Notes under the pieces: generated by a model
What the model saw: the letters and a program-made list of their open reading frames with translations, nothing else
Database searches by the model: none
Told to the model about the DNA's origin: nothing
Source: Eledone cirrhosa
Taxonomy: Eukaryota
Assembly (NCBI GenBank): GCA_964016885.1
Contig: OZ024740.1
Coordinates: forward strand, 430,156,001 to 430,220,000
DNA length: 64,000 bases
Direction: 5' to 3'
Part shown: piece after piece, positions 34,861 to 64,000 of the stretch
Layout of the letters: each line of letters begins with the position of its first letter
How positions within the stretch are numbered: position 1 is the stretch's first letter
Made by a program: the position numbers and the translations under genes

Positions 34861-35675
34861 ATAATTGTTTCTACTTTAGGCACAAGGCCAGCAATTACCC
34901 AGTGCATTACTGGTACTTTATTTTATCGACCCCGTAAGGGTGAAAGGCAAAGTCAACCTCGGCGGGATTTGAACTCAGATCGTAAAGGGACGTAACTATG
35001 CTGGAAAGCATGGCGTCCGACCCTCTACCGATACTGCCAATCCACCAAATAATGATTTCTGATTTAGACACAAGGCCAATAATTTTGGTGGGGGAGAAAG
35101 TTATTAAATTGACCCCAGTGTATTACTAGTACTTTATTTTATCGATCTTGTAAGGATGAAAGGCAAAGCTACTTTCGGTGGGATTTGAACTCAGAACGTA
35201 AATGGACGTAACTATATGCCGCAAAGCATGTTATCCGACGCTCTGCTAATACTACAAATCCACTGTTCTTAATTGTTTGTGATTTAGGCACAAAATCAAC
35301 CTGCTTTGCGACATATTGTTACGTCCCTTTTACCTTCTGAGTTCAAATCCCGCCGAGGTTAGTTTTAGCTTTCATCCTTACCGGGTCAATAAAATAAAGT
35401 ACCAGTAAGACACTGGGAGTCGATTTAATCGACTTTCTCTTCCCCCAAAATTGTTTGCCTTGTGCCTAAACCAATAACCAATATTAGATAAATGGCATCA
35501 ATACCGTAAATAATTGTTTCTACTTTTGGCACAAGGCCAGCAAATATCCAGTGTATTACTGGTACTTTATTTTATAGACCCCGTAAGGATGAAAGGCAAA
35601 GTTAACCTCGGCGGGATTTGAACTCAGACCATAAAGGGACGTAACTCTATGCTGCAAAGCATGCCGTCTGGCCCT
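34861..35675. mobile_element. Cluster of four tRNA-derived SINE copies (about 34861-35047 -, 35050-35265 -, 35315-35480 +, 35511-35675 -)
   Basis: Each carries the same core and B-box as 32100-32285. Confidence 0.8.
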
Positions 35676-37793: not shown

Positions 37794-38055
37794 CACATAT
37801 ATATATATAGATATAGATATAGATATATAGATATATAGATATATATATGTGTGTGTTTGTGTGTATATATATATATATATATATGTGTGTGTATATATAT
37901 ATATATATAAGAAGTTGACGGACCCAGCATATGTATCAATGATAGGACCGGGTGCATCTGAGCGTACTCAATAGGTAATGTAAAATACACTCCCAGAATA
38001 TATACACAGTTATTCGCTTCAATACAACACACGTAAGCGGGTAACTACAGTAGTT

Positions 38056-38166
38056 TCTGAACTCGAGTTTCTGCCACACTTTATGCAGCAGTAGGGTGCA
38101 CTTCACCCGCTATCCACATATATTATGTAATAATGCACAATCGGCGCATGTGGCTTCATCAGCGGG
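38056..38166 (-). ncRNA. Candidate minimal hammerhead ribozyme with long stem II insert and weak stem I
   Basis: Minus strand reads CCCG-CTGATGA-A-GCCACAT...(about 68 nt)...GTGTGGC-A-GAAA-CTCGAG-TT-CAGA. The core boxes are intact and loop III is palindromic, but stem I has only 2 of 4 pairs. Confidence 0.45.
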
Positions 38167-38703
38167 TTTCGCCTAATCAATAACCAATCGATCGACAGAA
38201 TTCAGCTCCAGTCCATACCGGCTATGACTGCATGTGACGGCCAACACAGTAAAGTGATTAGCAACTGGGATCTGATACAATGGTGTCCCCCGATCGGCCA
38301 CCGATTTATAAATTTACGTGATAGCAGGAGATTAGAAATCAAATATTTCCGCTCACGTCATAAGCCCTCAGCCAACGTGTCTCAAACACAAATTAATAAG
38401 ATAGTGAAAAATTGGTTATTAGAAAAATCAGTCTCACATCGCTGTATAATAGAATGGTATCATTCGGCTCTAGTCTTCAAGTCCCATGGCGAGAAAATCG
38501 CGATAGTAACAGTGGTAGTACCTTTATCCGGACATTAAACACCAACATCCATTACGCAGCGATATAGAGTAGCGCGTTGGTTAGCGACCAGCCACGTACG
38601 TAAACCAGTCTATTTCACAACTTATACGATTCAATAAGTGAGTGAGAAATTAGAGCGTATATCAAAACAAGACAAAATATGAAAAATTGTTTATATATAT
38701 ATA

Positions 38704-39286: not shown

Positions 39287-39495
39287 ACGAAGGAAGTGTG
39301 GTAAGGAACCAGGTGGACCACAACGCACCAGAGTACTCGATACTTTGGGTAGTAGAGTGGGTAATAGGAAACGGGTCAGGACCCCGACGGCAGAGCTCAG
39401 CCGTTTCGACGGCTATTTCTGGACTAAAATTTTAGTCCAGAAATAGCCGTCTAAACGGCTTGAGCTCTGCCGTCGGGGTCTTGAACCTTTTCCTA
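39287..39495. mobile_element. Short (TA)n-flanked element ending in a loopless 131-bp palindrome (39365-39495)
   Basis: Centre CTGGACTAAAA|TTTTAGTCCAG. Same family as 57046-57273. Confidence 0.8.
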
Positions 39496-39999: not shown

Positions 40000-40160
40000 A
40001 TAATAAGATCCCGTTAAGGGTGAAAGCACCGATTCTTTGCTTAAACTTTAATCTGCTATTTTAATAAATATATATATATATATATATATAGTTAGGGAAG
40101 CAGAAAATTGCTTATTGTTCGTGGTTAAGAAAGCCAGTTTCATGGACGGTTTCAACGTAC

Positions 40161-40188
40161 GGTTAGGGGTTAGGGTTAGGGTTAGGGG
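40161..40188 (+). repeat. Short interstitial telomeric repeat, about 4 x TTAGGG
   Basis: GGTTAGGGGTTAGGGTTAGGGTTAGGGG. Confidence 0.85.
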
Positions 40189-40573
40189 TAACTCCACAAG
40201 TTTGTAAGAATTCCGTTCAATCTTGGAGTATAAAGTATAAAAGAGAAAACACAGGTAAGCATTAAGAGAAGGATTTTATCCAGGTATTTACGACCGTTTC
40301 ATTGGTAAGTGCAAGCTTATATTGCTATACTGCAAATAGCAGCCACTCAATTATAATTGTTGTTCACGTCCAAATTTTCAAAATAGTGAGTAAGTTACTC
40401 TTGAAATAGTTCTTAATATACAGAGAAAAACATTTTTGGGGGAATTGTATTTACTAGTATAAAGAGAGAGGAAGAGGAATTAGAAGGTGAGGGGACAGAC
40501 GGAATAGTATAGAGAGAGAGAGGAAGGGGGAGAAGAGTTATCCATTAATCCATTAATCTTTATTTACGTTATA

Positions 40574-43984: not shown

Positions 43985-44037
<53 letters not shown>

Positions 44038-44228
44038 GGTTTGAGGTTCACCACTGTATAGAGCTGGTCTATTCCGTATGGTCAATCGTAATGCAATAAT
44101 ATAGAGAGTACTCAACGTAAAGCAGTTCAACCGTCTTTGTTTTTGTAGTTGGTGGTTCTATTACGGAGTTAAATATTATAATGAAATGACAGGAGGCTGG
44201 ATTTGTGTAAATCCTTGAAAGGTTTATT

Positions 44229-44286
44229 ATACTATGATCATTTCAATGACCGGGTTCCGTATGAATCCGGTGATATCATCAGGTAT
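44229..44286 (-). ncRNA. Minimal type I hammerhead ribozyme, intact core
   Basis: ATAC-CTGATGA-T-[ATCACCGGATTC atacg GAACCCGGTCAT]-T-GAAA-TGATCA-TA-GTAT: 4-bp stem I, hairpin stem II, palindromic loop III, AUA cleavage triplet, then AATAAA. Confidence 0.7.
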
Positions 44287-45472
44287 TCGAAATATAATAC
44301 GTGAATGTAATAGGTAAAATCCATGGGGCTGAAAATCGGGACCCGAGGGCGACCGCTATTCTGTTCCTTCAACCTCAGCCGGTCGCCCTGGAGTGACGTG
44401 GCTAAATTTTATAGTATGCTACTACCGGTCAGATGAACGAAAACAGAAAGAGATGGGAGCATAGGTTAACGTCGATCCCATGACACAAGGTAAAAGAAAG
44501 AAAGAAAGGAAGGAGAAGAAGGGGGAAGAAAGAAGAAGAGAAGTCAGGGTTAATGTCAGCTAAAAGAGGAAGGTAACTACTACTGGTCAGATATAGGCAA
44601 GCAAGAGGGGGAAGGAAGATAAGTCTGCGGGAGGAGGAGAGGGGAGAAGGAAGGGAAGAGAGAAGTAGAAAAGTAAGGGTTGATGGCTACAAGAAGGAAG
44701 ATAGAAAGGAAGAGGAAGAAAGGTCGATATTAATGTCAGACCACAGTCAAGCCAGGAGTGGCGCGAGAAAATTTTCACAGGGACCCGCATCTTAGCGGAG
44801 ATGAATATATTGGGAGTCAGTGTTTTACAGTGTTTAGACTTCTAGGATGAAGTTAAAAAAATTTAATAATCAATATTTTTAACTTCATCCTAATCAATTT
44901 TTTTAACTTCATCCTAGAAGTCTAAACACTGTAAAACACTGACTCCCAATATATTCATCTCCGCTAAGATGCGGGTCCCTGTGAAAATTTTCTCGCGCCA
45001 CTCCTGGCTTGACTGTGGTCTGACATTAATATCGACCTTTCTTCCTCTTCCTTTCTATCTTCCTTCTTGTAGCCATCAACCCTTACTTTTCTACTTCTCT
45101 CTTCCCTTCCTTCTCCCCTCTCCTCCTCCCGCAGACTTATCTTCCTTCCCCCTCTTGCTTGCCTATATCTGACCAGTAGTAGTTACCTTCCTCTTTTAGC
45201 TGACATTAACCCTGACTTCTCTTCTTCTTTCTTCCCCCTTCTTCTCCTTCCTTTCTTTCTTTCTTTTACCTTGTGTCATGGGATCGACGTTAACCTATGC
45301 TCCCATCTCTTTCTGTTTTCGTTCATCTGACCGGTAGTAGCATACTATAAAATTTAGCCACGTCACTCCAGGGCGACCGGTTGAGGTTGAAGGAACAGAA
45401 TAGCGGTCGCCCTCGGGTCCCGATTTTCAGCCCCATGGATTTTACCTATTACATTCACGTATTATATTTCGA

Positions 45473-45530
45473 ATACCTTATGATATCACCGGATTCATAC
45501 GGAACCCGGTCATTGAAATGATCATAGTAT
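45473..45530 (+). ncRNA. Mirror hammerhead copy with G5-to-U core mutation (CTTATGA), predicted inactive
   Basis: Identical to 44229-44286 except for T at 45479. Confidence 0.65.
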
Positions 45531-45600
45531 AATAAACCTTTCAAGGATTTACACAAATCCAGCCTCCTGTCATTTCATTATTATATATATATATATCTAT

Positions 45601-46444: not shown

Positions 46445-47295
46445 CAGAGGGAAGAGAGTAAGTTATGTATATTGAGAGAGGGGGAAGAGAGTTGTTACAT
46501 ATTTTGAGAGAGGAGGGAAGAATAAATTACATATATTAAGAGAGGGAAAAGAGGATAAGTTGGGTATATTGAGAGAGGGGGAAGAGAGTACGTTATATAT
46601 ATTGAGAGAGGAAGAAGAGAGTAAGTTATATATGTTAAGAGAGAGGGATGAGAATAAGTTATATATGTTATGAGAGAGGGAAGAGAGTAAGTTATAGATG
46701 TTAAGAGAGGGGGAGAGAGTAAGTTATATATGTTAAGAGGGAGGGAAGAGAAGAGAGAGGGAAGAGAGTAAGTTATAGATGTTAAGAGAGAGGGAAGAGA
46801 GTAAGTTATAGATGTTAAGAGAGGGGAGAGAGAGTAAGTTATATATGTTAAGAGGGAGGGAAGAGAAGAGAGAGGGAAGAGAGTAAGTTATAGATGTTAA
46901 GAGAGAGGGAAGAGAGTAAGTTATATATGTTAAGAGAGGTAGAAGGGAATATGTATATGATGAAGGAGGGGGAGAGAGTAAATTAGATATATTGAGAGGG
47001 GGGAATAGAATGAGTTAGGTATATTGAGAGAGGGGGAACAGAGAGATTTATGAACATTAAGAGAGGAGGAAGGGAGCAAGTTATACATATAAAGAGAGGG
47101 GGAAGAGAATAAGTTATACGTATTGAGAGAGAAGGAAGAGAGTAAGTTATATATATTGAGAGAGGAGGAGGAGAGTAAGTTATGTTTAGTGAGAGAGGGG
47201 TAGGAGAGTAAATTACATATATCACTAAACCTAATTTACTCTCTTCCCCCTCTCTCACTATATATGTAACTTACTCTCTTTCACCTCTCTCACAC
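46445..47295. repeat. Purine-rich 33-35-bp minisatellite whose last two units are inverted
   Basis: Unit approximately GAGAGAGGGAAGAGAGTAAGTTATATATGTTAA. Orientation flips near 47222. Confidence 0.85.
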
Positions 47296-48166: not shown

Positions 48167-48487
48167 AAAATATATATACAACCTTCCAGTTTCGCCTGTG
48201 GGAATATATAAAAACAAATCTGCATAACATAAAAGATGTGAGAAAATATTTGTAAAATTTAGTAAATTGACTTTATTATTTTTCAATAAATGGACATAAC
48301 AGTTTTTTTTGTTTTGTTTTTTTTTCCCAGTAGGCAATTCATGTTTTTATATCGATATCGATTTTCTAGTCTATTTAAACATTCCTAAGTTAAATGCTGT
48401 GAGGAACTATTTTTTATGTTCACCGGTAAGGGCAATAACTCTTGTGTTATTTACATTATTAAGTTCTCGAGCTAAAAACAAGTTAGG

Positions 48488-49801
48488 ATGATTACAACAG
48501 TTGACGAAGATATAGTCACGAAACGTAAAAGATATATTACTGACTTAGATGAATATTTAAAAGGATGTGAAGATGATTTAGGTAAACTTTTTGAAAGGCT
48601 CGAATGGACGCCGCAGCATTTTTTTGAAGACGAATCGGAGAAAGTGCCCTGTTCATATAGCGTTAACCACAAACTGCCGAATAATTCACTAGAAAAACAC
48701 GAACAAAGCTGTAAGTGGTTACAACTTGGATATAAATCTTCAGAACTTGCTAGTGTTCCTGAATCATCAAGTTTCTTTTACGAGAAATCCAATGTTATGA
48801 ATATTAAACTAGACAAGAATAATATCCAGTCAATTCTAAAGGAGTTTCACCGAAACAACGGTACGATGTTTGTGAATTATGAAAGAGAAGTAGCCCAGAC
48901 ACTTGAAATACGACAGAGAGATTATTCTGTAGATGAGCGACGAGCAATATACGATTATGTTGTTCGGGTGGCTAAAGAATTCCAGCGGATGCAGGCTTTA
49001 CCTGAAGATACTCTTTTGACTACAGACTTCGAAACTCTTATCAAGAAAGCTGCCAAAGGAAAAGAACTCAATGAACCTGCTTCTGAAACAGAAAAATGGG
49101 CTGCCATGCGGGACTATAAACGGAGGAGGCAATCATACCGAGCTAAAAATGTCCACATTACAAAGAAGACATATACAGAGATCATACGAGAGGTTATTCA
49201 TAACCAGGTGGAATTGTTGCAGACTTTATTGAAAGATTCTTCCGAAATGGAATCTACTGAAACTCAATCGTCAAACAGAACCGATAGACATTCTCATTCG
49301 AGGAGTAGGCGAGAAGGTGATCGTAGTAGAGATAGGGATCGATCTACAAGAAAATCGAAACCGGACAACAAAAGAAGTAGTAGCTACGAAAAACATGAAA
49401 CAAAACACAGAGATGGTGAAAAGAGTTCTAGAGGAAGTTCTGACTCTAAATACAGAGACAAAAATACTTCTGATACGAGAAAAGAGTCGAGGAAAAGTGA
49501 GAAAGAACATTCTGATGTGAGCTCCACGCCAAAGGATGGACCCCAGAAAGAATCCATGTCTTCAGTAAAAGACGTACAAAAAGCAATAGAAGACGCTAGT
49601 TACTCTTACGAAGAAAGTAGAGAGTTTTCTACAGAAGTGAGCGGTGATAATGTTTTAAGTGAAAGTCGAAGTTTAAAGAGACTCCATAGTGGAGAGGATG
49701 ATGCCGACGATACTGAGGATGTTGGCGGAAGGAAACAGAAACACAAAAAATCAAAAAAACACAAAAAACATAAACATAAATCTGAAAAACATGATAAATA
49801 A
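48488..49801 (+). CDS. SNRNP48: U11/U12 small nuclear ribonucleoprotein 48 kDa protein, single-exon CDS, 437 aa
   Basis: CHHC zinc finger (CSYSVNH...LEKHEQSC), the signature RDYKRRRQSYRAKNVHITKKTYTEIIREVI, and an R/S/D/K-rich tail ending in KHKK repeats. The ORF is uninterrupted. Confidence 0.93.
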   Translation: MITTVDEDIVTKRKRYITDLDEYLKGCEDDLGKLFERLEWTPQHFFEDESEKVPCSYSVNHKLPNNSLEKHEQSCKWLQLGYKSSELASVPESSSFFYEKSNVMNIKLDKNNIQSILKEFHRNNGTMFVNYEREVAQTLEIRQRDYSVDERRAIYDYVVRVAKEFQRMQALPEDTLLTTDFETLIKKAAKGKELNEPASETEKWAAMRDYKRRRQSYRAKNVHITKKTYTEIIREVIHNQVELLQTLLKDSSEMESTETQSSNRTDRHSHSRSRREGDRSRDRDRSTRKSKPDNKRSSSYEKHETKHRDGEKSSRGSSDSKYRDKNTSDTRKESRKSEKEHSDVSSTPKDGPQKESMSSVKDVQKAIEDASYSYEESREFSTEVSGDNVLSESRSLKRLHSGEDDADDTEDVGGRKQKHKKSKKHKKHKHKSEKHDK

Positions 49802-50520: not shown

Positions 50521-51056
50521 CACACATATATATGTATACACATATATATATGTGTATACACATATATACATGTATACATATATATATGCATACACACATA
50601 TATGTATACACACATATATATGCATACACACATATATATATGTATACACACATATATATATGTATACACATATATATATGAATACATATATATATGTATA
50701 CACACATATGTATACACATATATATGTATACACACATATATATGCATACACATATATGTATACACATATATATATATACTCATATATATGTATACTCACA
50801 TATATATGTATACACATATATATATGCATACACATATATATGTATACACATATATATGTATACACATATATATGTATACACATATATATATGTATACACA
50901 TATATATATATATGTATACTCACATATATGTATACACACATATATGTATACTCACATATATATGTATACACACATATATGTAAATACACATATATATGTA
51001 TACACATTATATATATATGTATACACATATATATGCATACACACATATATGTATAT
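50521..51056. repeat. (TA/CA/TG)n compound microsatellite
   Basis: Direct reading. Other dinucleotide tracts lie at about 37680-37909, 38707-38740, 38978-39073, 39504-39559, 39911-39996, 43990-44034, 53085-53180 and 58150-58206. Confidence 0.95.
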
Positions 51057-51439
51057 GGAGGCACATGGCTTAGTGGTTAGAGCATTGGCCTAGCAATCAA
51101 AAGGTTGTGAGTTCAATTCTCAGACCGAGTGATGTGTTGTTTCCTTGAGCAAGACACTTTATTTCACATTACTCCAGTTTACTCAGCTGTAGAAATGAGA
51201 TGATAGGACTGGGGTCCCTATCATTCCACTGCAAAGTGGTCGTGGAGGTGCCACGGAAAAAAAAGTACCCAGCCCACACTGTAAAGTGGTCGTGTAGGCG
51301 CCACAGAAAAAAAGCACCCGGCACTCACTGTAAATGAGGTTGGTGTTAGGAAGGGCATCCAGCTGTAGAAATCAAGCCAGAATCAGTTCCCGCCCCATCC
51401 TTGAAAGCAGGGAAAAGCGGACGTAAAATGATGATGATG
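51057..51439 (+). mobile_element. tRNA-headed SINE with RTE-LINE-like 3' tail
   Basis: A-box TGGCTTAGTGG, B-box GAGTTCAATTCTC, tail GGTTGGTGTTAGGAAGGGCATCCAGC...GGACGTAAAATGATGATG. Confidence 0.85.
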
Positions 51440-51532
51440 TATACACATATAATATATATATGTATACACACATATATATATATGTATACACACATATATA
51501 TATATGTATACACATATATATATATATGTATA

Positions 51533-53080
51533 CATCATCATCATCATCGTTTAACGTCCATCTTCCACGCTTGCATGGGTTTGGACGGGAGTTTTCCCAC
51601 TTGAGGCAAGATTGGTTGTCCTGCTCGTATAGGACTGTCTGGCGGGTTATCTACGGCTGGATACCCTTCCTAACACCAACCATGTTTACAGTGTGGACTG
51701 GGAGGTTTTTACCGTGTTACCTACACGGCCACATTACAGTGTGGACTGTGTTTTTTTGTCGTGACACCTACACGACCTCATTTGTTTCGGACTGGATGTT
51801 GTGGTACCAACATAACTTCACATTTAAGGGGGTGGGGGTAGTGGGACGGTGGTGTATTTTGTCAGCGGTGCCTACTGACCGTAGGTTTCGCTTTGTACTT
51901 AGGCAAGGCGGGTCTTCTGTATAATTGTGTAGCGCCAAAGATCTCGGTCCAGTGACATTGTCTTGGAGAGGTGTAAGTGTGTGAGGTCGGAATTTATCAA
52001 GTCGTCCCAGGTTTTTCTGGGTCTGCCTACTCCGTGGCTACCGTCTATTTTTATCGCCCTGCACTTTTTTATACAGCTGTTGTCTTTCATGCGCATCACG
52101 TGACCGTACCAACGTAGTCTTCTCTCGAGTAAGTTGCGCTATTACTTTTTCTGTGACCTTCATGACCTGGTTGATTAATTTAATGCCTCTATAGTTACCC
52201 CTATCTAGGGCATCTCCTTTACCCTTGTAGCAGTTAATGATGATGCTGCTATGCCAGTCCTTCGGAACGGCCCCATTCTGTATGACTTGGTTTACTATCC
52301 GGGTGACCATAGTGTGTCCCACTGTTCCAGATGCTTTCAGCATTTCAGCAACTATTTCTGAAGGCCCAGCCACCTTACCCGTCTTCATATCTTTGATTGC
52401 CTTACTTATTATACTACTAGCACTGCTGGTCCCTCTATTGGATCGATGTGGGGGAGACTGTCTTTCTCCCATTTATTCTCATTTAGTAGCCTTTCGTAGT
52501 GACACTTCCAAGCTACCTTCTTATCAGCAATGGCAAGTACACCATCATCATTAAGGACACACTTCCCCCCGACAATATCACATTGCCTAGCAATCCTGAA
52601 CACCTCATGTTTTTGGTCCTCGCGTTGTAGAACATGCTTGAACTTTCTTTCCTCTGCTTCCCTTCTTGCGAAGTACACTTGTCTCCTAGCTTCCCTCCTG
52701 GCCACTTGATAGTCTTCTCTACTTCCCCCATCCCGCCATACTTTCCAAGCCTGCTTTTTGGCCTTAATCGACTCCTCCACCTTACTGTTCCACCACCATG
52801 TTACTCTCCTCCTGCCTATAGGCCTGCTCCAGCCACAGACTTCGTCTGCCGCCATCAGTGGGTTTGCTTTCAGGAATTCCCACTGTTCCTCTATATTGTA
52901 CAACTCTAATTGCTCTTCCTTACTGTCAAAAGCATCAAGTAATATGCTTTGAAATTTATTACTGGCTGTGGGGTCCTTTAGCTTCCATATTTTTCTCCTG
53001 AGGATAGTCCTCCTCTGTTGTCGAGTATGTCTCATCCTGACTATGAGGTCGCTGACTATGAGTCTATGCTGGGAGGTGCA
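51533..53080 (-). mobile_element. RTE LINE pieces: endonuclease-RT linker and RT start (52132-53080) joined directly to a 3' end (51533-52131)
   Basis: QHRLIV...WKLKD...TWWWN...MKTGKVAGPSEIVAEML...GNYRGIKL...EKVIAQL, then RRLRWYGHVMR and a 3' UTR ending in (GAT)n. Confidence 0.9.
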
Positions 53081-53773
53081 TACAAATATATATATGTATA
53101 TACACACACATATATATGCATACATATATATATATATGTTTACACACATATATATATGTATAAACATTATATATATATAATAAAGAAGAGAAATGGTTTT
53201 AAATGTAATCCTCTGTTCATTATAGAATCCTGTTATACATACTCCTAACTATAGAAACATGAAAAACACCACAACTTTGCACCTGTCGGAAGAGAACACA
53301 TCAAAGGGTTATTATGTAATCACAATGTCTTCAAAACATGTCTAACAGTATTATATAACAGGATGTACATTTAACACTGTCTCCTTTATAATATTGACAC
53401 TCCAGTTGATACCTTACTGATAATACTTTAAGGAACACAAGCCGTAGAGTGCTTTACATCTGTTTATGCCCAAAGTCAGTGGATTGATCAAACAACTTTC
53501 TTCACTTAAATAATATATATAGGTCGGGAAAAATTCCAAAGATTATATATATATACACAAACATACATATATAATAATTTAGATGAATTTATAACACAAC
53601 CATATAAAGGCAAAGAATAATTCAAAGCTCAAATGTGATTTTCCACAGCAAGATAGTTAAAAGTTTAATCCAACCACAGTAGTTTTATGATATCAGTATA
53701 TATATATATGAAAATAACCAATATTTAATGACATTAAATTATTTAATTGATTGACAAACGTTTCAATCAATAT

Positions 53774-55491
53774 AACTAATCAGAAGAGAATTGATCTAGA
53801 TGAAATGCAGTTCGGGTTTGTGTCAGGTAAAAGTACCACAGACGCTCTTTTCATTGTACGACAACTACAGAAGTACCTAGCTAAAAGTAAACCCCTATAC
53901 TTAGCTTTTGTTGACTTGGAGAAAGCCTTTGACAGAGTCCTCCGTTCCATTATCTGGTGGGCTTTTAGAAAACTAGGTGTTGATGAATGGTTTGTGAGAG
54001 CTATACAAGCCATGTATAAAGAAATAGTCAGCAAGGTTAGAATTAACAACGAATATAGTGAAGAGTTTAGCGTAAAAGTTGGTGTTCATCAGGGCTCCGT
54101 TCTTAGCTCTCTACTATTTATTATTGCCCTTCAGGCTATAACAGAGGAGTTCAAGACCGGCTGCCCATGGGAACTCCTATACGCAGATGATCTAACACTC
54201 ATGGCTGAATTAGAGAAGAAATTCCAAACATGGAAGCATGGCCTAGAATCAAAAGGCCTTAAAGTTAACTTGTCTAAGACTAAAGTTCTAGTTTGTAGGA
54301 AGGAAAATAGGGCACCGGTCCCATCTGGGAAATGGCCATGCTCAGTGTGTAGGAAAGGAGTAGGCAGAAACTCCATTTTATGTCCCAAATGCAAAGTATG
54401 GGTGCATAAAAGATGTAGTGGGATCACAGGTAAGCTAACTAAGAATATAGATTTTATATGTGGCCGGTTCTCTGGTACAATAAGTAGCAGCAAGTGCCCA
54501 CAGAATACTAGCTCATTCCATTGCACAGATGGTTCTATAGAAATTGTGGACACCTTCCGTTACCTGGGTTACAAAATCAGCAGTGGGGGAGGGTGCTCTG
54601 AAAGTACAGTAGCTAGAGTCAGAACTGGATGGAAAAAGTTCAGAGAGCTTATACCACTATTGGCCGCTAAAGGGTTCTCTCTAAATATGAAAGGCAGGCT
54701 GTATGATACCTGCATACGAATAGCAATGTTACATGGCAGTGACACATGTGCATTGTGTGCAGAAGATATACGCAGACTGGAGAGGAACAAAGCTTGCATG
54801 CTCCACTGGATGTGTAATAGTAATATACGTGAACGGCAAAGCATAAACGAACTAAGGGAGAAATTAGGAATAAGAGGGATCATATGTTGTTTACTCAAGA
54901 GAAGACTACGTTGGTACGGTTACGTGATGCGCATGAAAGACGACAGCTGTATAAAAAAGTACAGGGCGATAAAAATAGACGGTAGCCACGGAGTAGGTAG
55001 ACCCAGAAAAACCTGGGACGACTTGATAAATTCTGACCTCACACACTTACACCTCTCCAAGTCAATGTCACTGGACCGAGATCTTTGGCGCTACACAGTT
55101 ATACAGAAGACCCGCCTTACCTAAGTAAAAAGTGAAACCTACAGTCAGTAGGCACCTCTAACAAAATACACCCCTGTCCCACTACCCCCACCCCCTTTAA
55201 TGTGAAGTTATGTTGGTACGACAACATCCAGTCCGAAACAAATGAGGTCGTGTAGGGAACACAACAAAAAAACACACAGTCCAGGCTGTAATGTGGCCGT
55301 GTAGGTAACACGGTAAAAACCTCCCAGTCCACACTGTAAATGTGGTTGGTGTTAGGAAGGGTATCCAGCCGTAGATAACCCGCCAGACAGTCCTATACGA
55401 GCATGACAACCAATCTTGCCTCAAGTGGGAAAACTCCCGTCCAAACCCTTGCAAGCGTGGACGATGGACGTTAAACGATGATGATGATGAT
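53774..55491 (+). mobile_element. RTE LINE, 5'-truncated: RT domain, Cys/His finger, C-terminus and 3' UTR
   Basis: MQFGF, FVDLEKAFDRV, GVHQGSVLS, LLYADDL, CSVC...CPKC...HKRC, RRLRWYG, GRPRKTW, tail CGTTAAACGATGATGATGATGA. The ORF start lies in flanking DNA, so this is not an intact gene. Confidence 0.93.
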
Positions 55492-55785
55492 TAATACCTG
55501 CTGTAGTGATCTCTTCAAAATCTATTAAACAACAAAATGTTTGTAAATCAATTAAATAATTTAATGTAATTTAATCCTGGTTATTTTTATTCATTATATA
55601 TACACTCACACACCCACATTATATATATATAGAGAGAGAGAGAATCTGTGGTGCTGAGACCGGGGAGACCACTAATCATGGGAGTACCCAATGCATGGGG
55701 AGATGCAGAATGAGTATAGAGATCGGTAAAATCCAGATCATGGTACCAAGCCTAAACTGCTTGGTACCATGGTTGGCATTTTACA

Positions 55786-55823
<38 letters not shown>

Positions 55824-55858
55824 AGAAGAAATTAAAAGATGGTTAAAAAAGTTCCATG

Positions 55859-55929
55859 TATTTTATTATGCACATTTCAAAAACAATTATCATCCTGGGA
55901 CGATATTTGCGTTCTCATCAGATAAAATA
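55859..55929 (-). ncRNA. Minimal type I hammerhead ribozyme
   Basis: TATTTTAT-CTGATGA-[36-nt hairpin]-GAAA-TGTGCA-TA-ATAAAATA. Confidence 0.75.
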
Positions 55930-56391
55930 GGGAGACATGATATGAAGCTTAAAAAAACACTTGTGAGCAAGGTAGTGTCTAAACAATATATGATAATTAA
56001 ATTTAAAAGGATACAGGAGATTGGAAAAAAGGGAAGGAAGGGGAAAAAAAGGAAGGAAGAGGAAGAAAGGAAAAAAGAAGGAAAGATAACGGTGGAAGAG
56101 AATAAGGAGGAGGAAGGAGAGAGAAAGAGAGAGATAAACATTTAAACTGAAAAACGCTGTCTCCACTGAGAAATAACTGAAAAAACGGTTGTAAATTTAT
56201 AAATAAATTAAAAAATTAATAAATTGATGAGGTTAATGAATGATGATGTTTATGATTACAGAAATAGAAATTAAGTATACTATTTATTTAGGGTTTATAT
56301 AGTGAAGGAGATATTAAGATGTGATTAGACATATGTTGTTTAGACACTACCTTGCTCACAAGTGTTTTTTAAGCTTCATATCATGTCTCCC

Positions 56392-56462
56392 TATTTTATC
56401 TGATGAGAACGCAAATATCGTCCTAGGATGATAATTGTTTTTGAAATGCGCATAATAAAATA
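56392..56462 (+). ncRNA. Minimal type I hammerhead ribozyme
   Basis: 8-bp stem I TATTTTAT/ATAAAATA, CTGATGA (56400-56406), stem II with about 14 pairs, GAAA (56443-56446), palindromic TGCGCA, predicted cleavage after A56454. Confidence 0.82.
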
Positions 56463-56637
56463 CATGGAACTTTTTTAACCATCTTTTAATTTCTTCTTAT
56501 ATATACTCCAGTCCAATAAACTGTTGAGTGCTACTTATCCGATATTTGCATTGCTTTATTGTTCTACAATAAAACTCACCTCCTACATATATATATATAT
56601 ATAATGGAGGCATATATATATAATATATATATATAAT

Positions 56638-57035
56638 GGAGGCACATGGCTTAGAGGTTAGAGCATTGGCCTTGCAATCGAAAGGTTGTGAGTTCAATTC
56701 TCAGACCGGGTGATGTGTTGTTTCCTTGAGCAAGACACTTTATTTCACATTGCTCCAGTTTACTCAGCTGTAGAAATGAGATGATAGGGACTGGGATTCC
56801 TATCATTCCACTGTAAAGTGGTCGTGGAGGTGCCACAGCAAAAAAGCACCCAGCACTCACTGTAAAGTGGTCGTGTAGGCGCCACAGAAAAAAAGCACCC
56901 ACCACTCACTGTAAATGAGGTTGGTGTTAGGAAGGGCATCCAGCTGTAGAAATCAAGCCAGAATCAGTTCCCGTTCCACCCTTGCAAGCAGGGAAAAGCG
57001 GACGTAAAATGATGATGATGATGATGATGATGATG
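56638..57035 (+). mobile_element. tRNA-headed SINE with RTE-like tail, near-identical to 51057-51439
   Basis: Collinear match along its full length. Confidence 0.85.
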
Positions 57036-57045
57036 TATATATATA

Positions 57046-57273
57046 ACAAAGGAATTGTGGTAAGGTACCAGATGGACCATAACGCATCAGAGTACTCAAT
57101 ACTTAGGGTAGTAGAGTGGGAAATAGGAAAAAGTATGACCCCGACGGCAGAGCTCAAGTCGTTTCGACGGCTATTTCTGGTTAGGTTTGTCTTTCCTGAG
57201 TAAACTACCAAATCTGCTACTGTTCGAGTCGAAACGGCTTGAGCTCTGCCGTCGAGCTCATACTTTTTCCTAT
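57046..57273. mobile_element. Short (TA)n-flanked fold-back element with 46-bp arms (57123-57168 / 57228-57273)
   Basis: Homologous to 39287-39495 but with a different turn-around point. Confidence 0.8.
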
Positions 57274-57306
<33 letters not shown>

Positions 57307-57660
57307 CGATATTAAATAAATGGAAACTATATTTATAAAAGCATATTTATTTCATTATATATATTTCAGGGATATCATATTAAAAATATGGTATGCCTTC
57401 TTCAGACAAAATACAATATAAACAGTCTTATAAATAGATAGATTTGACATACCTTTCAACTTCAACTTCCATTTAAAAAGTTGATTTGGTAGTGAAAAAT
57501 GTTAGGGACAGTTATAAAAAGAAAGAAAAAAAAAGCGAAGAAAAAGAAGAAATGCATGCAACTAAATAGAGAGAGATAGATATAGAGAGATAGATAGAGA
57601 GAAGAAATTCAAGTAAAGAAACAGAGAGAGATATATAGAGAGAGGAAAAAACACAGAGGG

Positions 57661-57706
<46 letters not shown>

Positions 57707-58146
57707 AAAAATAGAGAGAGATAGATATAGATAGAGATAGAGAGAAAGAAAAATGGGCACCAGTTGAATGACGTATCAATGATATAGTTATTTATTTATT
57801 TATTTATTTATTTAGTTCTAGTATTAAGGTAGAGAGAGATATAGGTGGTTAGGAGAGAAAACAGCCGTTACATAGAGAGAAAAGAAAAATATCCAGACAT
57901 AAACGAGGCAGATTTAAAACATTATGTTTCATCAATGTAAAAATATCAATTCGTATGAATTAGGTATTATAATGTAAATATCAGTATTCATGAATGAGAC
58001 ACGTATCAATAATGTGTGAAAAATAATGATCATATGTCTAGTTTAAAATTCCTAGGTTTATATCAGAGTTGAGGTAAAAACTGAGATAAAAAAAAAAAAA
58101 AACTGAGATAAAAAACTGAGATAAAAAAACTGAGATAAAAACTGAG

Positions 58147-58210
<64 letters not shown>

Positions 58211-58684: not shown

Positions 58685-61600
58685 CCCTCTAAATATTGTT
58701 TAGAGGATAACACTAACCCTAAACTTCTAGATATTGTTTAGAGGGTAACACTAAACCTAACCCTCTAAATATTGTTTAGAGGATAACACTAACCCTAACC
58801 TCCTAGATATTGTTTAGAGGGTAACACTAACCCTAACTTTCTAGATATTGTTTAGAGGGGAAAACTAACCCTAACCCTCTAAATATTGTTTAGAGGGTAA
58901 CACTAACCCGAACCCTCTAAATATGGTTTAGAGGGTAACACTAACCGTAAACCTCTAAATATTGTTTAGAGAGTAACACTAACCCTAACCCTCTAAATAT
59001 TGTTTAGAGGGTAACACTAACCCGAACCCTCTAAATATTGTTTAGAGGGTAACACTAACCCTAACACTCTAAATATTGTTTAGAGGGTAACACTAACCCT
59101 AACACTCTAAATATTGTTTAGAGGGTAACACTAACCCTAACACTCTAAATATTGTTTAGAGGGTAACACTAACCCTAACACTCTAAATATTGTTTAGAGA
59201 GTAACACTAACCCTAACCCGCTAAATATTGTTTAGAGGGTAACACTAACCCTAACCTTCTAAATATTGTTTAGAGGATAACACTAACCCTAACACTCTAA
59301 ATATTGTTTAGAGGGTAACACTAACCCTAACCTTCTAAATATTGTTTAGAGGATAACACTAACCCTAACACTCTAAATATTGTTTAGAGGGTAACACTAA
59401 CCCTAACCCTCTAAATATTGTTTAGAGGATAACACTAACCCTAACACTCTAAATATTGTTTAGAGGGTAACACTAACCCTAACACTCTAAATATTGTTTA
59501 GAGGGTAACACTAACCCTAACCTTCTAAATATTGTTTAGAGGATAACACTAACCCTAACACTCTAAATATTGTTTAGAGGGTAACACTAACCCTAACCTT
59601 CTAAATATTGTTTAGAGGATAACACTAACCCTAACACTCTAAATATTGTTTAGAGGGTAACACTAACCCTAACACTCTAAATATTGTTTAGAGGATAACA
59701 CTAACCCTAACACTCTAAATATTGTTTAGAGGGTAACACTAACCCTAACCCTCTAAATGTTGTTTAGAGGGTAACACTAACCCTAACCCTCTAAATATTG
59801 TTTAGAGAGTAACACTAACCCTAACCTTCTAAGTATTGTTTAGAGAGTAACACTAACCCTAACCATCTAAATGTTGTTTAGAGGGTAACACTAATCCTAA
59901 CCCTCTAAATATTGTTTAGAGGGTAACACTAATCCTAACACTCTAAATATTGTTTAGAGTGTAACACTAACCCTAACCCTCTAAATGTTGTTTAGAGGGT
60001 AACACTAACACTAACCCTAACACTCTAAATATTGTTTAGAGGGTAACACTAACCCTAACCTCTAAATATTGTTTAGAGGGCAACACTAACCCTAACCTTC
60101 TAAATATTGTTTAGAGTGTAACACTAAGCCTAACCCTCTAAATATTGTTTAGAGGGTAACACTAACCCTAACCCTCTAAATATTGTTTAGAGGATAATAC
60201 TAACACTAACCCTCTAAATATTGTTCAGAGGGTAACACTAACCCTAACCCTCTAAATATGGTTTAGAGGGTAACATTAACCCTAACCCTCTAAATGTTGT
60301 TTAGAGAATAACACTAACCCTAAACTTCTAAATGTTGTTCAGAGGGTAACACTAACCCTAACCCTCTAAATGTTGTTTAGAGGATAACACTAACCCTAAC
60401 CTTCTAAATGTTGTTTAGAGGGTAACACTAACCCTAACCTTCAAAATATTGTTTAGAGGGTAACACTAAGCCTAAACCTCTAAATGTTGTTTAGAGGGTA
60501 ACACTAACCCTAACCCTCTAAATGTTGTTTAGAGGGTAACACTAACCCTAACCCTCTAAATATTGTTTAGAGGGTAACACTAACCCTAACCTTCTAAGTA
60601 TTGTTTGGAGAGTAACACTAACCCTAACCCACTAAATGTTGTTTAGAGGGTAACACTAACCCTAACACACTAAATGTTGTTTAGAGGGTAACACTAACCC
60701 TAACACTCTAAATATTGTTTAGAGGGTAACACTAACCCTAACCTCTAAATATTGTTTAGAGGGCAACACTAACCCTAACCTTCTAAATATTGTTTAGAGG
60801 GTAACACTAACCCTAATCCTCTAAATATTGTTTAGAGGATAATACTAACATTAACCCTCTAAATATTGTTCAGAGGGTAACACTAACCCTAACCCTCTAA
60901 ATAATGTTTAGAGGGTAACACTAACCCTAACCCTCTAAATATTGTTTAGAGGGTAACACTAACCCTAACCCTCTAAATATGGTTTAGAGGGTAACACTAA
61001 CCCTAACCCTCTAAATGTTGTTTAGAGAATAACACTAACCCTAACCTTCTAAATGTTGTTCAGAGGGTAACACTAACCCTAACCCTCTAAATGTTGTTTA
61101 GAGGATAACACTAACCCTAACCTTCTAAATGTTGTTTAGAGGGTAACACTAACCCTAACCTTCAAAATATTGTTTAGAGGGTAACACTAAGCCTAAACCT
61201 CTAAATGTTGTTTAGAGGGTAACACTAACCCTAAACTTCTAAATATTGTTTAGAGGGTAACACTAAGCCTAAACCTCTAAATGTTGTTTAGAGGGTAACA
61301 CTAACCCTAACCCTCTAAATATTGTTTAGAGGGTAACACTAACCCTAACCTTCAAAATATTGTTTAGAGGGTAACACTAAGCCTAAACCTCTAAATGTTG
61401 TTTAGAGGGTAACACTAACCCTAACCCTCTAAATATTGTTTAGAGGGTAACACTAACCCTAACCCTCTAAATATTGTTTAGGGGGTAACACTAACCCTAA
61501 CCTTCTAAATGTTGGTTAGAGGATAACACTAACGCTAACACTCTAAATATTGTTTTTTAGGGTAACACTAACCCTAATCTTCTAAATATTGTTTAGAGGA

Positions 61601-64000
61601 TAACACTAACCCTAACCTTCTAAATATTGTTTAGAGGGTAACACTAACCCTAACCCTCTAAATATTGTTTAGAGGGTAACACTAACCCTAACCCTCTAAA
61701 TATGGTTTAGAGGGTAACACTAACCCTAACCTTCTAAATATTGTTTAGAGGGTAACACTAACCCTAACCTTCTAAATATTGTTTAGAGGGTAACACTAAC
61801 CCTAACCCTCTAAATGTTGTTTAGAGGATAACACTAACCCTAACCTTCTAAATATTGTTTAGAGTGTAACACTAACCCTAACCCTCTAAATATTGTTTAG
61901 AGGGTAACTCTAACCCTAACCTTCTAAATATTGTTTAGAGTGTAACACTAACCCTAACCCTCTAAATATTGTTTAGAAGATAATACTAACACTAACCCTT
62001 TAAATATTGTTCAGAGGGTAACACTAACCCTAACACTCTCAATGTTGTTTAGAGGGTAACACTCATCCTAACCCTCTAAATATTGTTTAGAGTATAACAC
62101 TAACACTAACCTACTAAATGTTGTTCAGAGGATAACACTAACCCTAACACTCTAAATATTGTTTTTTAGGGTAACACTAACCCTAACATTCTAAATATTG
62201 TTTAGAGGGTGACACTAACCCTAACCTTCTGAATATTGTTTAGAGGGTAACACTAACCCTAACCCACTAAATGTTGTTTAGAGGGTAACACTAATCCTAA
62301 CACTCTAAATATTGTTTAGAGGGTAACACTAACCCTAACACTCTAAATATTGTTTAGAGGGTAACACTAACCCTAACCTCTAAATATTGTTTAGAGGGCA
62401 ACACTAACCCTAACCTTCTAAATATTGTTTAGAGGGTAACACTAACCCTAACCCTCTAAATATTGTTTAGAGGATAATACTAACATTAACCCTCTAAATA
62501 TTGTTCAGAGGGTAACACTAACCCTAACCCTCTAAATAATGTTCAGAGGGTAACACTAACCCTAACCCTCTAAATATTGTTTAGAGGGTAACACTAACCC
62601 TAACCCTCTAAATATGGTTTAGAGGGTAACACTAACCCTAACCCTCTGAATGTTGTTTAGAGAATAACACTAACCCTAACCTTCTAAATGTTGTTCAGAG
62701 GGTAACACTAACCCTAACCCTCTAAATGTTGTTTAGAGGATAACACTAACCCTAACCTTCTAAATGTTGTTTAGAGGGTAACACTAACCCTAACCTTCAA
62801 AATATTGTTTAGAGGGTAACACTAAGCCTAAACCTCTAAATGTTGTTTAGAGGGTAACACTAACCCTAATCCTCTAAATGTTGTTTAGAGGGTAACACTA
62901 ACCCTAACCCTCTAAATATTGTTTAGAGGGTAACACTAACCCTATCCTTCTAAATGTTGTTTAGAGGATAACACTAACGCTAACACTCTAAATATTGTTT
63001 TTTAGGGTAACACTAACCCTAACCTTCTAAATATTGTTTAGAGGGTAACACTAACCCTAACCCTCTAAATATTGTTTAGAGGGTAACACTAACCCTAACC
63101 CTCTAAATATGGTTTAGAGGGTAACACTAACCCTAACCTTCTAAATATTGTTTAGAGGGTAACACTAACCCTAACCTTCTAAATATTGTTTAGAGGGTAA
63201 CACTAACCCTCACCCTCTAAATGTTGTTTAGAGGATAACACTAACCCTAACCTTCTAAATATTGTTTAGAGTGTAACACTAACCCTAACCCTCTAAATAT
63301 TGTTTAGAGGGTAACTCTAACCCTAACCTTCTAAATATTGTTTAGAGTGTAACACTAACCCTAACCCTCTAAATATTGTTTAGAAGATAATACTAACACT
63401 AACCCTCTAAATATTGTTCAGAGGGTAACACTAACCCTAACACTCTCAATGTTGTTTAGAGGGTAACACTCATCCTAACCCTCTAAATATTGTTTAGAGT
63501 ATAACACTAACACTAACCTACTAAATGTTGTTCAGAGGATAACACTAACCCTAACACTCTAAATATTGTTTTTTAGGGTAACACTAACCCTAACATTCTA
63601 AATATTGTTTAGAGGGTGACACTAACCCTAACCTTCTGAATATTGTTTAGAGGGTAACACTAAGCCTAAACCTCTAAATGTTGTTCAGAGGGTAACACTA
63701 ACCCCAACCCTCTAAATATTGTTTAGAGGGTAACACTAACCCTAAACTTCTAAATATTGTTTAGAGGGTAACACTAACCCTAACCTTCTAAATATTGTTT
63801 AGAGGGTAACACTAATCCTAACCCTCTAAATGTTGTTTAGAGGATAACACTAACCCTAACCTTCTAAATGTTGTTCAGAGGGTAACACTAACCCTAATCC
63901 TCTAAATGTTGTTTAGAGGGTAACACTAACCCTAAACCTCTAAATATTGTTTAGAGGATAATACTAACACTAACCCTCTAAATATTGTTCAGAGGGTAAC
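58685..64000. repeat. 38-bp telomere-like hairpin satellite, about 140 units, open at the right window edge
   Basis: Unit TAACAC TAACCC TAACCC TCTAAA TATTG TTTAGAGGG. Confidence 0.98.

Follow-up and report, generated by a model that had tools for sequence, protein, structure and literature searches.

Endonuclease-bearing Penelope-like retroelements (PLEs) have been described as inserting with an inverted, 5′-truncated copy, a tail at one end and a bias for (TA)n targets (PMC8557442; PMC3846280). The purified anole PLE (Frangieh 2024, PMC11167929), a predicted dimer, cleaves AT-rich DNA on both strands and extends each of them; it begins reverse transcription at two positions within the RNA, between which lies the tail. 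Its hammerhead depends on the protein, hammerhead cleavage is dispensable for insertion in vitro and no RNA ends were detected at the hammerhead site in the anole reads. Minimal hammerheads occur in PLE repeats with many families per genome and low activity as dimers, and opposite-strand pairs 100–700 bp apart were ascribed to truncated PLEs (Cervera and de la Pena 2014, PMC4209133); dimer cleavage via the palindromic loop is summarized in a review (PMC6765202). Animal retrozymes consist of units repeated head to tail in tandem, each carrying a motif (Cervera and de la Pena 2020, PMC7229834), and have been argued to be non-autonomous PLE derivatives (Li 2026, bioRxiv 10.64898/2026.07.22.740005). 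Finally, octopus genomes are rich in PLEs: in O. vulgaris, 31 families were recently active (PMC13282606). The abundance of PLEs in octopuses is also described in PMC8967140.

We analysed a 64,000-nucleotide stretch of DNA from the octopod Eledone cirrhosa (the window), in which a first-pass annotation had noticed hammerhead-bearing, ORF-less fold-backs around 56 kb. We propose that this 56-kb unit and its neighbours are quite probably head-to-head stubs left in (TA)n by endonuclease-bearing PLEs. As such, they likely represent a known insertion pattern and not a new self-copying element.

Fold-back stubs and their surroundings

The 56-kb unit, element A, is framed by (TA)n and comprises, in this order, a long arm, its shorter inverted counterpart and, on that side only, a tail of 83 nt:

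55802..55823, no strand: (TA)n target run, left flank of A (from the sequence layout)
55821..56329, minus: long arm, tail-less and non-coding; upstream of the motif its minus strand is rich in pyrimidines; the orientation of 55990–56329 is partly inferred
55859..55929, minus: type I hammerhead of the long arm, core 55921–55867, loop III UGUGCA
56329..56336, no strand: head-to-head joint with self-complementary ACATATGT; in other listed copies, 4 of 34 arm ends fall at 56331–56334
56330..56503, plus: short arm (from the arm comparison)
56392..56462, plus: type I hammerhead of the short arm, core 56400–56454, loop III UGCGCA, predicted cut 56454/56455
56504..56586, plus: one-sided tail of 83 nt (from the family sequence), with TTGAGTGC, a variant of the tail motif discussed below, at 56524
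56587..56603, no strand: (TA)n target run, right flank of A (from the sequence layout)

The two arms are 97.7% identical over 177 nt, TA included, and read-derived pieces covering 55884–56085 pass from the arm into the spacer. This is the published layout of truncated PLE insertions; we read the fold-back as an insertion scar. Both arms have in common bases that are rare in the family, such as the A at 56434 (mirrored at 55887), where 726 of 737 RAD reads have T, and therefore derive from one template or source.

Several further units lie in the window:

39287..39495, no strand: stub C1, a tail and 65-nt head-to-head arms; hammerhead core not found
44035..44169, minus: one-sided tail of B, 135 nt, with the tail motif at 44114
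44170..45589, no strand: 699-nt arms of B, head to head and 99% complementary, with (TA)n on both outer flanks
44233..44282, minus: hammerhead of B with intact core, loop III UGAUCA and a 4-bp helix I adjoining the core
45477..45526, plus: mirror motif of B, with the broken core CUUAUGA
55643..55790, no strand: stub F, a tail-like part and short inverted arms (55739–55751 with 55759–55771) between GA/TC runs; recognized by eye, under the BLAST cut-off
57046..57273, no strand: stub C2, of the C1 family (88% over 150 nt) with another inversion point; hammerhead core not found
57307..58149, minus: D, a single non-coding arm between (TA)n runs
57356..57405, minus: hammerhead of D, core CUGAAGA, loop III UAUAUA, 8-bp helix I; not named in the first-pass annotation

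(TA)n lies on both flanks of A, B, C2 and D, and A, B, C1 and C2 have a one-sided tail; the joint of B holds a 24-bp duplication (44867–44916). The layout, the one-sided tail and the (TA)n flanks fit the link to PLEs drawn in the first-pass annotation. Its description of the 44-kb and 56-kb pairs as outward-facing, ending in (TA)n and lying near AATAAA (at +4 and −1, respectively, from the first base past the cut) is confirmed. Its observation that the window has no Penelope RT also holds: 261 frames reach 45 aa, 164 of them are complex, and the longest 150 of these yielded no GIY-YIG or PLE-type domain; the two RVT_1 matches both lie outside the stub elements.

As in Penelope/Poseidon, Neptune and Nematis units (Arkhipova 2013, PMC3846280; Craig 2021, PMC8557442; Frangieh 2024, PMC11167929), we find a head-to-head inverted, 5′-truncated copy, an optional one-sided tail, a palindrome at the joint, an AT-rich or (TA)n target and a hammerhead near the 3′ end; unlike these units, the window copies have neither an ORF nor a direct pseudo-LTR. 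Several observations count against their reading as PLE stubs: (i) the tails measure 83–135 nt as against 30–40 nt in published endonuclease-bearing PLEs; (ii) the non-coding part upstream of the motif extends over 409–744 nt, whereas the UTR of the anole element measures 126 nt, and the 409, 586 and 744 nt upstream of the cores contain no recognizable coding sequence; (iii) no PLE RT or GIY-YIG domain is tied to the A, B and D families, either in the window or through 129 database loci (see below); (iv) no inverted partner of D was found in the window; (v) a target-site duplication is not readable in the (TA)n flanks. Having no ORF for RT plus GIY-YIG, the stubs are not classed here as autonomous PLEs; their PLE origin is putative.

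The stubs occupy a repeat-rich middle part of the window, between an 87-bp satellite that extends to 31.7 kb and a 38-bp satellite that begins at 58.7 kb. The former (1–31681; ~360 copies, some of 84 bp, 95–98% alike) contains long open frames that would give 29-aa repeats rich in Cys, Thr or Gly, and the latter (58685–64000; 140 copies) has in each copy a short hairpin and the telomere-like word TAACCCTAA; a short TTAGGG run is also present at about 40160–40190. The region may be subtelomeric. With stub elements on both sides, an intronless 441-codon frame (48476–49801) encodes a U11/U12 snRNP 48-kDa (SNRNP48-like) protein, whose residues 1–260 are 80% identical to Argonauta hians and about 40% to bivalves, as would suit an octopod host. 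At 51500–55500 lie two LINE pieces in opposite orientation with a 607-nt 3′ end in common (94.6%), one of them encoding RVT_1 with a PHD-like finger; we take the RVT_1-bearing LINE pieces of the window to be RTE-type. The 3′ part of a tRNA-headed SINE, present in two copies (51008–51439 and 56588–57020; 92% alike) that end in (ATG)n, resembles the 3′ end of these LINE pieces. Further, two copies of a second family of short repeats (~10 copies in 32–50 kb) stand imperfectly head to head at 35048–35485, and a 33-bp purine-rich minisatellite (46446–47292) ends in an inverted repeat (47124–47292) beside TG/TA repeats; this end may be another fold-back stub.

The hammerhead motifs

On the plus strand of element A, the core at 56400–56454 reads CUGAUGA, a helix II region, GAAA, UGCGCA and UA. 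Its helix II region spans 36 nt and forms 14 pairs with two 1x1 mismatches, while an 8-bp helix I pairs 56392–56399 with 56455–56462, placing the predicted cut at 56454/56455. The mirror motif (core 55867–55921, minus strand) differs from the plus copy at two bases, and its loop III, UGUGCA, is a wobble palindrome with a self-duplex energy of −6.0 kcal/mol as against −10.5 for UGCGCA. With their cores, 8-bp helix I, long helix II and palindromic loop III, both motifs (56392–56462 and 55859–55929) are confirmed as hammerhead motifs. Across the window the CUGANGA, GAAA and UH core is intact at 56400, 55921, 44282 and 57405 and broken at 45477, giving four intact cores and a broken one from three insertions. 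The palindromic loops could pair between copies in all four intact motifs (−10.5, −6.0, −7.2 and −3.2 kcal/mol). The minimal dimer-type design ascribed to them earlier fits the evidence. Lunse et al. reportedly described dimer cleavage.

The numbers of pairs in helix I and helix II are 8 and 14 in A, 8 and 12 in D, and 4 (adjoining the core) and 10 in B. Our strict descriptor required the core, a palindromic hexamer, a helix I of at least 4 bp and a helix II of at least 2 bp, and B fails it through a U-U as the first helix II pair. It gave three matches in 31.7–58.6 kb, from two independent insertions, as against none in any of 60 block shuffles. Further, a helix I of at least 4 bp was present in none of 129 pattern-only matches from public contigs (94 metagenome and 35 viral-contig loci), to which a BLAST search with A, B, C and D yielded no relatives. 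Given these two null results, in the shuffles and in the database pattern matches, the motif is beyond chance. An earlier pattern search had remained at chance level, with five matches in the window and at least five in 15 of 100 shuffles; it missed the motifs because helix II exceeds 30 nt. A hammerhead search of the kind advocated in the first-pass annotation, run here within the window, was positive with the strict descriptor (three sites) and negative with Rfam, where nothing reached the gathering score, only hairpin microRNA look-alikes appeared below it, and the hammerhead was absent from the best 150 of 191 E-value rows. The folding energy of the monomers was no better than that of shuffles for the four A and B motifs (z of −0.7 to −1.7).

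The pair G10.1-C11.1 is missing in all three families, which have G-U, U-U and A-U instead, and a register without an extra base after A9 fits the A, B and D motifs best. Both features are typical, though not part of the published descriptor, and we have filed these as a putative variant hammerhead motif on the grounds of sequence. Like the minimal type I hammerheads of PMC4209133, they have a full core, a larger-than-usual helix II, palindromic positions 15.2–16.2 and loop 3, opposite-strand pairs and several divergent families per genome; unlike them, they form a helix II of 13–14 pairs with two mismatches and a helix I of 8 bp (in A and D), are devoid of G10.1-C11.1 and of the extra base after A9, and reside in an octopod host. 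No report of PLE hammerheads in octopods was found in a search covering few subscription papers; the supplements of PMC4209133 and PMC8557442 may list cephalopod motifs.

Despite their divergence in sequence, the three families retain helix I, the palindromic loop III and a helix II whose fourth pair is a C-pyrimidine mismatch; two-sided pair changes occur between the families only. The distance from the motif to the tail-less end is likewise conserved (49, 63 and 49 nt), and AATAAA lies at −1 (56 kb) or +4 (44 kb and 57 kb) relative to the first base after the cut. The recurring design with different hexamers claimed earlier stands for TGCGCA and TGATCA; it fails for CTCGAG, which has no core, and one of the 44-kb cores is broken (CUUAUGA). 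The above tally includes the added motif at 57356–57405.

Two other candidates were rejected: (i) the CTCGAG site at 38062 (minus strand), the only one of eight CTCGAG sites to lie behind GAAA, because its best core has two mismatches; (ii) a one-mismatch core seen by eye in stub C2, which has no helix II. Separately, an insert between TA runs (37910–38690) contains the tail motif and, at the place expected for a hammerhead, GAAA and a palindrome without the CUGANGA core; its part 38020–38140 forms a stable multi-stem fold (z of −2.5). It is perhaps a decayed or different RNA motif.

Variable joints and the origin of the stubs

Family A is high-copy. The evidence from reads comes from four of seven runs and at most three samples, X1 and X2 being the same sample and possibly the source of the assembly. 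Altogether 4090, 3575 and 229 contigs and 5524 RAD reads aligned to 789 bases; contig sums and RAD loci give no copy number, and a few loci dominate the RAD depth. The tail is covered as deeply as the hammerhead motif. The copies have two alternative 3′ ends, near 56487–56491 or at 56588, both leading into TA repeats, with loose ends behind 56487 in 46 and 31 contigs and 189 reads and behind 56588 in 1223 reads. We counted at least 17 different head-to-head joints (14 among the 15 best of 21, and three more), in which 25 of the 34 ends are distinct. Both arms contain a whole hammerhead in three of these 17 listed joints, one arm in five and neither in nine; one go-back joint (55981–55912) among those listed covers no whole motif. 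As inversion points vary among the copies, the fold-back is a product of insertion and not a fixed element; C1 and C2 repeat this variability within the window. Hence, the claim of defined non-autonomous fold-back elements is not sustained, whereas mobilization in trans, by a protein encoded elsewhere, fits the evidence.

The variants in the reads bear on the fold. Among the 40 variants listed of 167, none affects the core, helix I or the hexamer; the T at 56434 closes a helix II mismatch, and a G-to-A change at 56420 (561 of 602 reads) turns a G-U pair into A-U. Helix II changes among these 40 are one-sided only and mostly transitions, which we count against the reading as PLE stubs. In the loose-end subfamily, too, the core is kept and helix II is altered on only one side per position, mostly by transitions, which offers a faint hint in favour of the fold.

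Observed directly are the layout, the position of the motif (49–63 nt from the end without a tail), the existence of two alternative 3′ ends and the variability of the joints. Briefly, we advance the following mechanism, by analogy with the anole PLE (PMC11167929). A protein combining RT and GIY-YIG, predicted to be dimeric, would cut both strands of AT-rich DNA, and reverse transcription would start at two internal sites of the RNA, the interval between which would become the tail. In A, one cDNA would have started near 56503, yielding the tail-less arm, and the other near 56586, yielding the tailed one; both would have stopped early and annealed through a self-complementary patch (ACATATGT). 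The hammerhead would then be a passenger of the pseudo-LTR, cleaving as a dimer in head-to-tail source transcripts or together with the element protein, and not within the inverted stub. As source RNA, a long untranslated end belonging to a coding PLE is on balance the more likely option. The combination of hammerhead and (TA)n would point to a Neptune-type rather than a Naiad clade. Naiads resemble the stubs in their inverted insertions, tails and (TA)n bias, as does the Chlamys element MRC1 in being non-coding and mobilized in trans (PMC8557442); unlike the stubs, whose arms are 98–99% alike, the Naiads described there have no canonical hammerheads and in cephalopods are reported only as old remnants. 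Stubs C and F, in which no hammerhead core was found, could belong to either group.

The nearest alternative concerns the source: dedicated non-coding PLE derivatives of 0.7–0.9 kb or more, copied in trans, with the stubs as their truncated insertions. We regard this as a minority possibility, though the best placed of the alternatives. The 409–744 nt upstream of the cores, 68–72% pyrimidine in all three families, are without coding trace, the two arms of B have nearly coincident starts, as a genuine RNA 5′ end would give, and precedents exist in MRC1 of Chlamys (PMC8557442) and the animal retrozymes (bioRxiv 10.64898/2026.07.22.740005). However, coding PLEs might have long UTRs, family A has no common 5′ end among the 17 joints listed, and its summed depth drops from 1e5–1e6 at the 3′ end to 1e2–1e4 upstream, as expected from 5′ truncation, with a contribution from subfamily divergence.

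A second alternative concerns the inversion, which might arise by self-priming, with fold-back at a palindrome on the antisense template, instead of from two cDNAs. Such a process has been proposed for rotifer PLEs (PMC3846280), and it would account for the near-equal arms of B, C1 and F and for the palindromes at joints (ACATATGT in A, a perfect centre in C1 and a CATATG-containing insert in the 55929–56392 joint). Yet two identical cDNA ends would likewise anneal only via a palindrome, and the anole PLE protein, with its two start sites, extends each strand of the target (PMC11167929). Moreover, the tailed short arm of A could not form by fold-back of a sense cDNA, though antisense self-priming could give it; as the long arm of A is tail-less, two cDNAs appear preferable to a tail-primed sense-cDNA fold-back. 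Self-priming is thus unlikely in our view, if worth retaining.

That the fold-back itself replicates, as a retrozyme-like RNA excised by two outward hammerheads and circularized, we consider very improbable, even though two motifs flank both the 56-kb and the 44-kb units and AATAAA lies beside each cut site. The motifs lie on opposite strands, so that one RNA carries only one of them and those of A cannot dimerize in cis. The read-through RNA of A is predicted to form one long hairpin (−318 kcal/mol, z of −23) in which the whole motif is paired; with the strand arrangement, this burial of the ribozyme leads to the prediction that the A stub does not cleave itself out. Further, the joints vary, 9 of the 17 listed have no whole motif, and no head-to-tail hammerhead array was found in 31–64 kb. 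The stubs thus resemble animal retrozymes in being non-coding, in having a type I hammerhead and in their likely derivation from and mobilization by PLEs, and differ from them in their head-to-head arrangement with variable joints. Least probable of all are MITE-like DNA transposons or LINE-mobilized SINEs with an incidental hammerhead match, for, inverted repeats, TA flanks and nearby LINE RT fragments notwithstanding, the repeats lie inside the unit as head-to-head arms, with a tail on one side, and are not the terminal repeats of a fixed element, and the motif is beyond chance, with its position and fold kept in three families.

As a separate observation, A (55821–56503) and B (44170–45589) would, if read through, form near-perfect RNA duplexes of 175 and 699 bp. 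A-to-I RNA editing is a feature of cephalopods, and these duplexes are candidate substrates for it or for small RNA production.

Arm starts, the tail motif and their bearing on PLE biology

Returning to the stubs as PLE insertion scars, two leads emerge. First, among the joints listed, 16 of 34 arm ends fall in 56455–56476, the 22 nt after the predicted cut, as against one in 56443–56454 (binomial 0.006, computed post hoc on the best-supported joints only, with ends that are not independent). The longer arm starts 0–7 nt after the cut in 6 of 17 listed joints. Many of the joints may hide further letters, and short stubs are favoured in any case; stalling at helix I or AT-rich microhomology would give the same pattern. 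The depth ratio across the cut is 0.96 and 0.97 in contigs, i.e., without a step, and 1.19 in RAD reads. Because the summed depth shows no step, it is disfavoured that most copies start at the cut. Arm starts at a hammerhead cut site were not reported in the literature searched, which covered few subscription papers.

The second lead is a word near the tail end:

37970, 39339, 44114, 55691, 56524, 57098 and 58263: YGAGTAC-type tail motif, 40–73 nt inside the microsatellite boundary, in stubs unrelated in sequence

In 31.7–58.6 kb, five of six YGAGTAC words point at a TA run 46–73 nt away, a zone that makes up 7% of positions; the motif was chosen after it had been sighted, and two of its matches belong to one family. 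A relaxed form adds elements A and F. The tail motif is possibly a shared RNA signal for the PLE protein. Taken together, the two leads raise the speculative prospect, which we rate as doubtful, of several high-copy, non-coding, PLE-dependent families in octopods that use a hammerhead-cleaved germ-line RNA as template, as the arm starts might indicate, and a GAGTAC-type tail signal.

In broader terms, the stubs add octopod examples to a pattern described between 2013 and 2024, and they caution that a hammerhead fold-back without an ORF, in an animal genome rich in repeats, is usually the scar of a PLE. What the hammerhead does in endonuclease-bearing PLEs is described as unclear (PMC8557442), and the arm-start pile-up, if genome-wide, would raise the importance of these stubs. 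With thousands of copies, the joining of two cDNAs could be told apart from self-priming and the tail signal could be delimited; if the proposal of hammerhead-cleaved templates is true, the in vivo role of PLE hammerheads would become testable from a genome assembly alone.
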